Shown: in pieces, positions 6,001 through 9,000 of the stretch
Layout: each line of letters opens with the position of its first letter
Position numbering within the stretch: position 1 is the first letter of the stretch
Source of the DNA: a virus
Lineage: Duplodnaviria > Heunggongvirae > Uroviricota > Caudoviricetes
DNA: 24,110 nucleotides
Reading direction: 5' to 3' (one strand)
Virus record (IMG/VR): IMGVR_UViG_2534681831_000037
Program-made: the position numbers

Positions 6001-9000
6001 TTCGTAGGCTAAATACGCTGAAAGCTCTGTGTTTCCCTGCCTGATGTGCAGCTCGCATAGCGAACCGCGAACCATCCAGACAAATATCAGAATGGTGATG
6101 CAAACCACCACCAGACAAAACACATAGCTCCTTCGCATTACAGCCCCCTGTTAGTTGATTTCTTACTGTTAAGAGGCTAATCTTTATGTGTCGCATACAG
6201 AATGCCTCAGATTAATGTTAAGCGTCTTGCCGGACGCGTAATGTTAACTGGGGCTTTTCTCTATCTACCTTTGGTGTTCATGCCCGAGGCAGATAGCCTC
6301 AAGCACCCACAGCAATTCTAACTATCCAATACATCACTGCCAACACTTTAAACTCTTACCCTTTAAAACAAGAACAAAATTCAACCAATCAGCATTGGGC
6401 GTATACTCATATCCTAGAGAAAACAACTCTTTCTGTACTATTTATATCCATATGATTTATAAGCATTTGCCACTTGCCATAGCCGCACAATGACAGTTTG
6501 CCATTTGATGTCAATAGATAAAAATGATCGTTTTCAATGAGTTACATACTTGCAAGGCGTTGCACATCAGGCCCGATTACGTCAGTATCAAAAGATTACA
6601 GATGGTGCATTACTGCCACCTCGCCTTAATGTTCCAGAACCCTCCAACTTGAGGAATTTTCAATGACATCCTTTCAATTATCTTTGATTTCTCGTGAAAT
6701 TGACGGCGAAATAATACATTTACGTGCCAAAGATGGTTACATAAACGCCACATCAATGTGTAGAACTGCGGGCAAACTGCTCTCTGATTACACTAGACTC
6801 AAAACTACTCAAGAGTTTTTTGACGAATTATCACGCGATATGGGAATTCCCATATCGGAGTTAATTCAATCATTTAAAGGTGGAAGACCTGAAAACCAAG
6901 GGACATGGGTGCATCCTGACATCGCTATTAATCTAGCGCAGTGGCTATCGCCCAAATTTGCAGTCCAGGTTTCAAGATGGGTTCGTGAATGGATGTCAGG
7001 GGAAAGAACTACAGCAGAAATGCCTGTACATTTAAAACGGTACATGGTTAATCGTAGTAGAATTCCTCACACGCACTTTTCTATTCTTAATGAACTGACA
7101 TTCAACTTGGTTGCACCTCTTGAACAAGCAGGGTACACACTCCCAGAAAAAATGGTTCCTGACATTTCACAAGGAAGAGTATTTTCACAATGGTTAAGAG
7201 ATAATAGAAACGTAGAACCCAAAACATTCCCTACCTATGACCATGAATATCCCGATGGTCGCGTATACCCTGCAAGGCTGTACCCAAATGAATATTTAGC
7301 AGATTTCAAAGAACATTTTAACAATATTTGGTTGCCGCAATATGCCCCGAAATACTTCGCTGACCGGGACAAAAAGGCTCTCGCCTTGATTGAAAAAATT
7401 ATGCTACCTAACCTCGATGGCAATGAACAGTTCTAAATGATTAGCCAGCCCCATAAGGGCTGGTTATTTAGTATTATCAACCCCAGTGGCAAATCGAATA
7501 CACCACCAGCGCCACGGCCATTGCAATTCCTGTCGTTGTGAATGCCTCAGGCCAGGTCATTGATTCACCTTCTGCTCAATATTTTTAAGGTCATTTTCCG
7601 CATACAGTATTGCAGTTCTTGCTGCCCGCAACCGTGCTTTGGTGTTCTTTTCTTCACGCTCGAGGCTGGCAACAGATTCTCGGAGCTGATCGCGTCTGTT
7701 ATGAAGCTGTCTAATCTCTCTCACCACAGCCTCACCATCGTTCGCACACCGCAGAACATACTGAAAAGGGTCCACAACACATCCGCACTGCAAGCACAGG
7801 ATAACGCGATCCTGTTCATGAACCTCAATGGCCCGATGCTTACAGCTCTGTTGTGTGTAGTTTTTTCTGCCAGTTACTGTAATGTTCAGCAGCTTCTCTT
7901 CATCGCGCTTTGGCTGCACCAGTGTGATGATATTATCGCCTTCATTTTCCATCAGTTCACCTCCTGCGGCGGTTCTGGTAGCGGCATCCAGTGTGTGGCC
8001 TGTTCAATACCATTACCATCAATACCATTACCAGGCGCAACCGTTATCTGCCCACGCCGAAAGGTGCTTCCGGTATAGCGTGCGGAGCATATTAGCGGCT
8101 CAACCAGATCACTATCGAAATTCACCGAAATAAGCACGTTCTGGCCCTTTTCAGGCATTCGATCACTACAGCTTATCCAGCCATCCGTAGTTACCGGAGA
8201 ATTGCCAGCCTTGCGCATGGCAATCTCCATGATTTCAACCATATCCCCTGGTGGAATTTTACAATGCTGACCAGTATGCCTCTGCTGTCTGGCATATTCG
8301 AGGATGTGCTCCAGCTTGGTACGATTAATCATGATTTATCTCCCTTAAGCATGGCAGCGCGGCAGGCATCCTCTACGCCCTTAACTGCATCTGCGCAGTA
8401 GTTATAGCGATTGCATTCCACTAACTTCTGCTTGAGATTTTCAATTGATTGCGCGATATCAGCCTGTATTACCGGAGCTGGCGGAACGGCTGTCTGCACT
8501 CGAACGTCATCAGGTACTACCGGCTCTACTGCCAACTGACTGGCATATTTGTTAATGGTAACGATAAGCTCTTGCTCGGCCTCATCCAGACAATCACCGA
8601 TACCTCGCCTGTCACCGTCAAAATCATCGAAATCGGCGCGAATCCTGGCAACCTCCCGGATTGCGGACAACACCTCACCAGGAATTACCGTAGAGTTGCC
8701 CGATAGTACATTCTGCTCCAGTGATGCCAGTGCAATCCGTGCCAACTCACGAATCTCACCGCCGTCTATATCGTCAATGTCATCACGGCCATAAATGTTA
8801 GCCAGCCATTGCAGTCGCTCTTTGGTAATAGTGATCATGCCGCGTTTCCTTCTTTCTTATTAACAATTACACCGTCATATATTTCATTAAGGTGCCCTCT
8901 CAACTCCATGCGCCTTAAGGCAGACAACATGTAATCGCATTCAACCTGCTTATTCCCAATAAAAGGTTTATCTTCAGGGTTACCCCAACAGCAATTCCCC

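Follow-up and report, generated by a model that had tools for sequence, protein, structure and literature searches.

The DNA analysed here, called the window in the following, is a stretch of 24,110 nucleotides (nt) from a virus of the class Caudoviricetes (IMG/VR virus record IMGVR_UViG_2534681831_000037). The region of interest is 100% identical to a Rac-like prophage of Escherichia coli 95NR1 (RefSeq record NZ_CP021339.1). On the minus strand, an operon leads from the cro-like genes ydaS/ydaT, which lie opposite racR, through replication genes, a methyltransferase gene, an Ead/Ea22-like gene and a DUF551 gene to a gene for a protein of 131 amino acids (aa), and from there to an open reading frame (ORF) of 27 codons, MTWPEAFTTTGIAMAVALVVYSICHWG (Table 1). 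This is the cro/replication-side operon of the prophage. Both ORFs, the overlap between the TGA of the first and the ATG of the second, and a transmembrane (TM)-like core in the short product had been proposed for positions 7477-7952 in an earlier reading of the sequence, hereafter the original prediction, and all of them are present. Comparison with related loci indicates that the 27-codon ORF is almost certainly a real protein-coding micro-gene, specifying a tiny membrane-spanning peptide.

The core of the Shine-Dalgarno (SD)-like motif preceding the ORF (AGGTGA, 7570..7565) is separated from the ATG by 4 nt. Together with the 4-nt ATGA overlap, it provides the sequence prerequisites for translational coupling to the upstream gene. 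Since 71 ORFs of at least 20 aa occur in the surrounding 4 kb, a length of 27 codons is no proof of a gene; taken alone, the ORF does not exceed what chance would give, and the case for a gene is built on comparative evidence. The window copy carries T10 (codon 7531-7533) and H25 (CAC, 7486-7488) at positions where the majority of copies have V10 and R25 (CGC), and this variant is matched at 99% identity or more by only five E. coli records. A sister prophage (locus L216), a related Rac-like element with the same KilA-N gene downstream and a different gene upstream, retains R25 and V10. Fusion of the TM helix to the 131-aa protein by programmed frameshifting was considered and set aside, as the peptide frame contains a stop five codons before the ATG and no slippery heptamer was seen.

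The comparison started from 91 loci encoding a homologue of the 131-aa protein. An MTWPEAF-type ORF, with its ATG overlapping the upstream TGA, follows in 36 of them, and one further locus (L060) holds a divergent homologue, MNWPEAAAIVGVAFAIAWALINS, which starts at a GTGA; an ATGA or GTGA overlap is found in every peptide copy anchored on the 131-aa gene. These copies accompany two diverged lineages of the 131-aa protein, with 98-100% and ~60% protein identity, respectively. Scanning IMG/VR for the DNA pattern of the ORF's initial 20 nt extended the set to 152 family copies, comprising 58 unique 27-codon sequences and 34 peptides. The search patterns demanded ATGA, and the universality of this overlap in the pattern-derived set is therefore partly imposed. 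For the same set, substitution statistics were restricted to codons 8-27, the part left unconstrained by the pattern. Across these codons the proportion of synonymous differences (pS) is 0.40 and that of nonsynonymous differences (pN) 0.15, giving a pN/pS of 0.38, and the summed column entropy amounts to 9.3, 5.9 and 18.4 at codon positions 1, 2 and 3. None of the 58 sequences contains an internal stop in the sense frame, and all 58 do in each of the other two frames of the sense strand. All length variants, among them three different 6-nt deletions, differ by whole codons and stay in frame. The start context is likewise kept: of 73 unique upstream contexts, 66 contain an SD match of at least 5 nt, most commonly AGGAGGTG at a spacing of 5, and the 20 nt before the ATG nearly always hold AGGAGGTG or GGAGG. 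Conservation at homologous loci had been proposed as a check on the ORF together with the original prediction; frame, ATGA overlap and hydrophobic pattern are conserved there, and this check speaks for a gene.

The predicted product has a simple layout. Residues 7-23 of the window copy show a mean Kyte-Doolittle hydropathy of 1.82, and among 44 variants the best hydrophobic segment of 17 residues starts at residue 7 in nearly all cases, with means mostly between 1.7 and 3.1. The N-terminal tail (MxWPEA) carries a side-chain charge of -1 in all 44 variants and the C-terminal tail is positive in 35 of them. In an alignment of 30 sequences M1, W3, P4 and A6 are invariant and E5 is found in at least 90%; the E. 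coli-type copies retain G11 and A15, as do several divergent ones. A single-pass inner-membrane microprotein, produced early in infection, is the probable product. Because of the positive-inside rule and the resemblance to the layout of the Pf3 coat protein and similar YidC substrates, an N-out/C-in orientation is predicted, and insertion would be Sec-independent and of the YidC type. The Pf3 coat protein (44 aa) is inserted by YidC in an N-out/C-in orientation and likewise combines an acidic N-terminal tail, a TM helix and a basic C-terminal tail. The M13 proteins gVII and gIX (~32-33 aa) are likewise tiny hydrophobic phage peptides and are translationally coupled to the preceding cistron, as is predicted here. 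In contrast to these Inoviridae virion components, the peptide is encoded in the early region of tailed phages, shares no sequence similarity with them and forms a far more widespread mosaic unit.

A wider scan, which accepted CCR instead of CCT for proline and any alanine codon and in which ORFs of 21-40 aa were counted as unique peptides, returned many unrelated-looking small ORFs in which M-[NTS]-W-P-E-A-[FILM] precedes a TM helix and a short tail, mostly basic, on contigs of 29-66% GC. Among the matches listed, 26 of the 46 small ORFs starting with M-x-W-P-E/D-A were TM-like, and 25 of these 26 are not of the E. coli type. With the scrambled control pattern M-x-W-E/D-P-A, none of 21 small ORFs was TM-like, and the whole collection held 76 matches as against at least 120 for the real pattern. 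A few of the relatives have C-terminal extensions, reaching 59-90 aa. The family, for which there is no curated model, was defined in the present analysis and is named MxWP(E/D)A after the cap. Judged by sequence, the window peptide is a member of this wider, undescribed family of single-TM phage microproteins: it has the cap and one hydrophobic helix within a total of ~22-37 aa, and it is a stand-alone small ORF whose start overlaps or abuts the preceding stop, with the SD inside the preceding gene. Outside the E. coli-type copies, family members are flanked by a wide variety of early or DNA-metabolism genes, now and then by genes of the DUF551 or Ea22 type. Searching cultured phages by tblastn with two divergent members gave no match, and a search of a large protein database with the 59-aa relative returned only that sequence itself and one homologue.

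The original prediction had described the peptide as translationally coupled to the Zn-ribbon/coiled-coil protein encoded upstream. A specific pairing of the two is not supported, as only about 37 of the 91 loci with the 131-aa gene carry the peptide and most peptide copies directly follow other genes, either of the DUF551/Ea22 type or with a product ending in ...GLISVEDILR. A tblastn search of the peptide against cultured phages gave 100 records. In BP-4795, PhiR12_4, POCJ13 and the lytic Vequintavirinae phage Av-05, the ORF occupies an unannotated gap of ~80 nt and overlaps the stop of an unrelated upstream gene of the DUF551 or Ea22/EaA type. The C-termini of the proteins encoded directly upstream include ...LPEPPQEVNQ (DUF551), ...LKNIEQKVNQ or ...EVNR (131-aa gene), ...GLISVEDILR (a third type) and several others. 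In pairwise comparisons with four loci (L216, L092, L075 and L003), sliding identity sets in ~15-20 nt before the ATG and breaks off at the stop. Behind the stop, 43 distinct 25-nt contexts were counted, among them the hok promoter, four or more different terminators and several genes. When every stop-to-stop segment in 1.7 Mb of loci was searched with a hidden Markov model, the motif turned up solely in small ORFs that stand alone in terminal position, and never within a larger protein. The arrangement of SD and start overlap is retained whichever gene stands in front, and the SD moves along with the last few codons of that gene. By these comparisons SD, ATGA, ~27 codons and stop together constitute an independent mosaic module of the Ea22/DUF551 ('exo-xis'-type) accessory cluster, carried by lambdoid prophages, phage-plasmids and at least one lytic coliphage. 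Natural fusions of DUF551 with the peptide, suggested by a look-up of exact-sequence clusters, turned out to be a clustering artefact; the DUF551 sequences concerned lack the peptide.

The 3' end of the 131-aa gene in E. coli lineages (CAG-A/G-AG-GTG-AAT-CA/G-ATGA) resembles that of the DUF551 gene, and the 131-aa genes of Klebsiella that lack the peptide end otherwise (...EQGIKQ). It appears that the initiation region of the peptide was brought into the end of the 131-aa gene by recombination. Moreover, 3' end and peptide are almost identical between the two lineages of the 131-aa gene, which points to one recombinational acquisition rather than to co-evolution. This acquisition, the 54 of 91 loci without the peptide, and the position of most copies behind DUF551/Ea22-type or '...GLISVEDILR' proteins all argue against a function of the peptide as a dedicated partner or membrane anchor of the 131-aa protein, in which the ATGA coupling would fix the stoichiometry of the two. 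Such a partnership would account for the coupling seen here and in both diverged lineages, and also for two 131-aa homologues which have unrelated small hydrophobic ORFs in the same slot, overlapping the stop of the 131-aa gene (MMPPVKVVVITLAMCAICQLIAVSGMGIW, 29 aa, at ~3385-3475 of L064; MISKCDALLYAMVVGFGLAAGIRVYIAWESLINLAWGAING, 41 aa, at ~3391-3517 of L080). The slot behind the 131-aa gene seems to attract small TM ORFs. In the loci left over, it holds other genes or is empty. That the peptide is a dedicated partner is not supported by the distribution of its copies, and we consider it very unlikely.

The interpretation preferred here, to which we assign a probability of about 0.75, is that of a real micro-gene for a single-pass inner-membrane microprotein with an accessory early function, exerted by helix packing with a membrane target. 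Translation of the ORF, by ribosomes terminating on the upstream gene or recruited by the strong SD, would accompany any transcription of the early operon, that is after infection or prophage induction and not in a repressed lysogen. The product would display the six-residue acidic cap M-x-W-P-E/D-A, a helix of 17-19 residues and a usually basic C-terminal end (R25), with a conserved small-residue face (G11-x3-A15-x-A17) along the helix. By analogy, packing of this helix with that of a host membrane protein, or with itself, would be the most likely mode of action.

Bacterial single-TM microproteins regulate larger membrane proteins by helix packing. The peptide is like KdpF (29 aa), CydX (37 aa), AcrZ (49 aa), MgrB (47 aa) and MgtS (31 aa) in size, in its single hydrophobic helix and in having no enzymatic domain, and the genes of these proteins, like the ORF described here, have often been missed by annotation. 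Unlike them, the peptide is phage-borne, lies in an early accessory operon without an adjacent gene for a membrane complex, and is unrelated to them in sequence. The KdpF model TIGR02115 reaches 15.5 bits against a cutoff of 26.85 and covers residues 10-21 only, and the neighbours are phage genes, so that the peptide is not classed with KdpF.

A single hydrophobic helix of 27 aa in total would also be compatible with a membrane-damaging toxin or a lysis-type peptide (type-I toxin, holin or viroporin), which depolarises or permeabilises the inner membrane; a toxin had been raised in the original prediction. The type-I toxins of E. coli and its prophages (Hok/Gef, Ibs, ShoB, TisB, Ldr) are likewise small hydrophobic peptides (19-50 aa), a Hok gene lies nearby in the window and the peptide directly precedes the hok/sok locus in Sp5 and 933W. 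The small-xxx-small face could support oligomerisation. However, this hok neighbourhood is only one of more than ten downstream contexts, and the helix of the window copy, rich in Ala, Gly, Val and Thr, is not strongly hydrophobic. Type-I toxins are encoded on repressed stand-alone mRNAs with tightly blocked translation, in contrast to the strong SD and the coupling to early genes found for the peptide. Scans of the peptide and nine variants against Pfam, NCBIfam, PHROGs and PADLOC gave no family match, neither to Hok/Gef, Ldr, Ibs or TisB nor to a holin or any PADLOC model, and for the E. coli-type peptides there was no significant PHROG or Pfam match to a lysis protein, be it holin, antiholin or spanin. 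Only composition-driven hits below threshold were obtained, to PTR2, KdpF and phrog_4612 (E 0.02-0.08) and to an Rz-like spanin (E 0.18). A sequence-profile search of the PDB with the family alignment returned nothing at E values up to 10. The sole Rfam match within 5800-8100 is sok at 6136-6308; it belongs to the separate hok gene, 1.2 kb from the peptide, and no antisense or antitoxin RNA family overlaps the ORF. The holin gene of the prophage is located ~9 kb away in the late region. Taken together, these results make a toxin or lysis peptide unlikely.

Several observations weigh against the micro-gene interpretation or restrict it. The antisense frame that shares the wobble position is open in 57 of the 58 sequences and has a pN/pS of 0.36, with no conserved start. 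Such a low value is the expected mirror effect, and substitution statistics alone leave the strand undecided; the sense strand is favoured because of the conserved ATG, SD, stop position and hydrophobic pattern. In addition, the copies are phylogenetically related, so that pN/pS and entropy are descriptive values and not independent tests. The copy of the Shigella phage POCJ13 (L093, 2001-2084) is a nonsense pseudogene, with codon 3 changed from TGG to TAG and with V11 and S15 among several further changes, and its decay shows that at least one phage can do without the gene. Variants without R25, namely the window copy with H25 and a common variant combining S25 with K10, weaken the topology argument. 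Among 34 diverse loci of the wider family the neighbours are heterogeneous (genes for DNA polymerase, exonuclease, Q antiterminator, DUF551, Ea22, holin and helix-turn-helix proteins), and no partner recurs throughout. Neither a Sakai ribosome-profiling study nor an enterobacterial microprotein catalogue lists the peptide in its accessible supplements. Finally, the proposed function is purely inferred by analogy.

The similar pN/pS of the antisense frame could also be expected if the encoded peptide were of no consequence, either because the act of translation alone matters (keeping ribosomes at the mRNA end, preventing Rho-dependent polarity or handing over from stop to start) or because a fortuitously open spacer is kept for a DNA or RNA reason. 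A handover would fit BP-4795 and PhiR12_4, where the start of the following gene lies 4-5 nt behind the stop of the peptide and an SD-like GGGGA is supplied by the codons of the C-terminal ...TGGGGATAA. On the other hand, cap and TM helix are retained with different codons in phages of 29-66% GC, as is the G11/A15 face, and the ORF is kept where a terminator directly follows (the window, L070 and L083). An RNA element at the ORF was rejected, since it has no Rfam match and its fold, otherwise unremarkable (z = -1.6), owes this score to the terminator hairpin, which dominates it. We therefore regard an explanation without a functional peptide as highly improbable.

Extending the micro-gene interpretation to the whole family, the MxWP(E/D)A peptides could be pan-phage minimal membrane effectors, used by phages whose hosts range from 29 to 66% GC, which act on a single inner-membrane machine that is universally conserved, such as FtsH, the YidC/Sec insertion apparatus or a complex for respiration or transport, or which block DNA entry of superinfecting phages, with the cap as recognition element. 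This extension is speculative and less likely than not to be correct. If it were, the copies in E. coli prophages, present in ~29% of complete genomes and in all the classic Shiga toxin (Stx) phages, would represent an unrecognised early host-takeover or exclusion factor. Irrespective of this, phage microproteins are poorly charted and most predicted ones have no comparative support, whereas frame, start context, hydrophobic pattern, in-frame indels and recombination junctions at both borders amount to unusually clean evidence for an ORF of 27 codons. The peptide occurs in medically important Stx prophages, in an exo-xis-type region that has been connected with the choice between lysis and lysogeny and thereby with the release of toxin. 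Its invariant cap makes it simple to search unrelated phages for relatives, and should a host target exist, the peptide would be an easily testable minimal membrane effector.

In complete E. coli genomes, the 99-nt unit was detected by blastn in 1553 of 5426 (~29%), at 2498 places, with up to six per genome and 117 on plasmids. The ORF is present in 933W, VT2-Sakai, VT1-Sakai, BP-4795 and the lytic phage Av-05. It had been described as unannotated, which applies to RefSeq, where none of the copies inspected is annotated, including that of the identical record NZ_CP021339.1; the exact 27-aa sequence is, however, deposited in GenBank as 'hypothetical protein' (ERA54451.1 / ERE08721.1), and some submissions label the peptide as 'bacteriophage' or 'prophage' protein. 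The peptide sequence was not found in any paper of the searchable literature. In lambda and Stx phages, the exo-xis region (ea22, orf73, orf61, orf63, orf60a, ea8.5, orf55) comprises early accessory genes (PMC10834534, PMC8614690), and the reviews consulted do not describe the peptide. The exo-xis genes share its neighbourhood and timing, being located distal to the recombination and replication genes and beside genes of the Ea22/DUF551 type, with the difference that lambda has no copy of the peptide between ea22 and xis.

Table 1. Features of the peptide locus in the window
Feature	Position	Strand	Details
27-codon ORF MTWPEAFTTTGIAMAVALVVYSICHWG	7477..7560 (stop codon included)	-	ATG start; from ORF listing
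ATGA start/stop overlap	7557..7560	-	Peptide ATG 7560..7558; upstream TGA 7559..7557; plus strand reads TCAT
SD-like AAGGTGA for the peptide	7565..7571	-	Within the last codons of the 131-aa gene
131-aa protein, phrog_1621	7557..7952	-	ATG start; E 1.9e-59, residues 1-130 on profile positions 5-134 of 134
DUF551 gene	7952..8332	-	PF04448, E 2e-21; TGA overlaps ATG of the 131-aa gene
GC-rich hairpin	7442..7466	.	Between peptide stop and convergent KilA-N gene; scored as intrinsic terminator for the plus strand
KilA-N/BstA-like gene, convergent	6663..7436	+	Pfam KilA-N; PADLOC BstA PDLC02356, E 3e-21, residues 119-238
hok/sok locus, complete	5986..6343	-	Hok ORF 5986..6138; Rfam sok 6136..6308, 93.9 bits; promoter-like TTGGCA-17-TAGAAT 6343..6315
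Antisense 178-aa ORF, ATG start	7542..8078	+	Opposite the 131-aa gene and the end of the DUF551 gene; Leu/Ser/Cys-rich; no family support

In Sp5/VT2-Sakai and 933W, the same 131-aa gene and peptide are found in the exo-xis-type part of the early-left operon, and the hok promoter follows directly after the peptide stop. Relative to these phages the KilA-N gene of the window is an insertion between peptide stop and hok promoter, in agreement with its description as a moron in the original prediction. By its domain matches it is probably a BstA-type prophage abortive-infection defence gene. The peptide had further been called the last cistron of the early operon. It does end the operon ahead of the hairpin, but the wording is loose, as minus-strand genes (hok and nin-like genes) resume beyond the inserted KilA-N gene.

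The 131-aa protein matches phrog_1621 over its full length, a PHROG to which no function is assigned. Homologues down to ~45% identity occur in Escherichia, Salmonella, Klebsiella, Citrobacter, Kosakonia, Xenorhabdus and Providencia. Across 25 homologues C37, H39, C53 and C56 are invariant and would form a CxH...CxxC knuckle resembling a zinc ribbon, and the C-terminal segment LEREEKNxKARLR...ENDLKN is highly conserved. An AlphaFold2 model (mean pLDDT 81) consists of a disordered N-terminus, two short β-hairpins with strands at residues 42-45 and 50-53, and a single helix comprising residues 62-130. The best Foldseek matches of this model are zinc ribbons of the TFIIB type, at non-significant E values of at least 2.4, and neither sequence nor fold searches retrieved a solved relative. 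Accordingly, the Cys cluster of the original prediction is found and so is a long helix, which spans ~69 aa instead of the ~50 aa proposed for the coiled coil. A putative Zn ribbon combined with a long helix or coiled coil is a fair description of the model, the metal site being a predicted one.

At locus L075, which belongs to the lineage with 60% identity, a DUF551-containing ORF and the 131-aa ORF form one frame of 309 aa upstream of 3394 (...HWMPLPEPPQGGELMKNEVDN...). This frame may be a natural fusion that functionally links DUF551 proteins and phrog_1621. In an O157:H7 strain (NZ_CP062725.1), the gene before the 131-aa gene bears the annotation 'dATP/dGTP pyrophosphohydrolase domain-containing protein' instead of DUF551, another sign of the mosaicism of this gene cluster. 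The antisense ORF of 178 aa has the appearance of a shadow ORF of the coiled-coil gene. In the identical RefSeq record, three tRNA genes (Arg, Arg, Ile) are annotated at ~1564..1815 of the minus strand, just upstream of the late region, a position of tRNA genes which is typical of Stx-type and lambdoid prophages.

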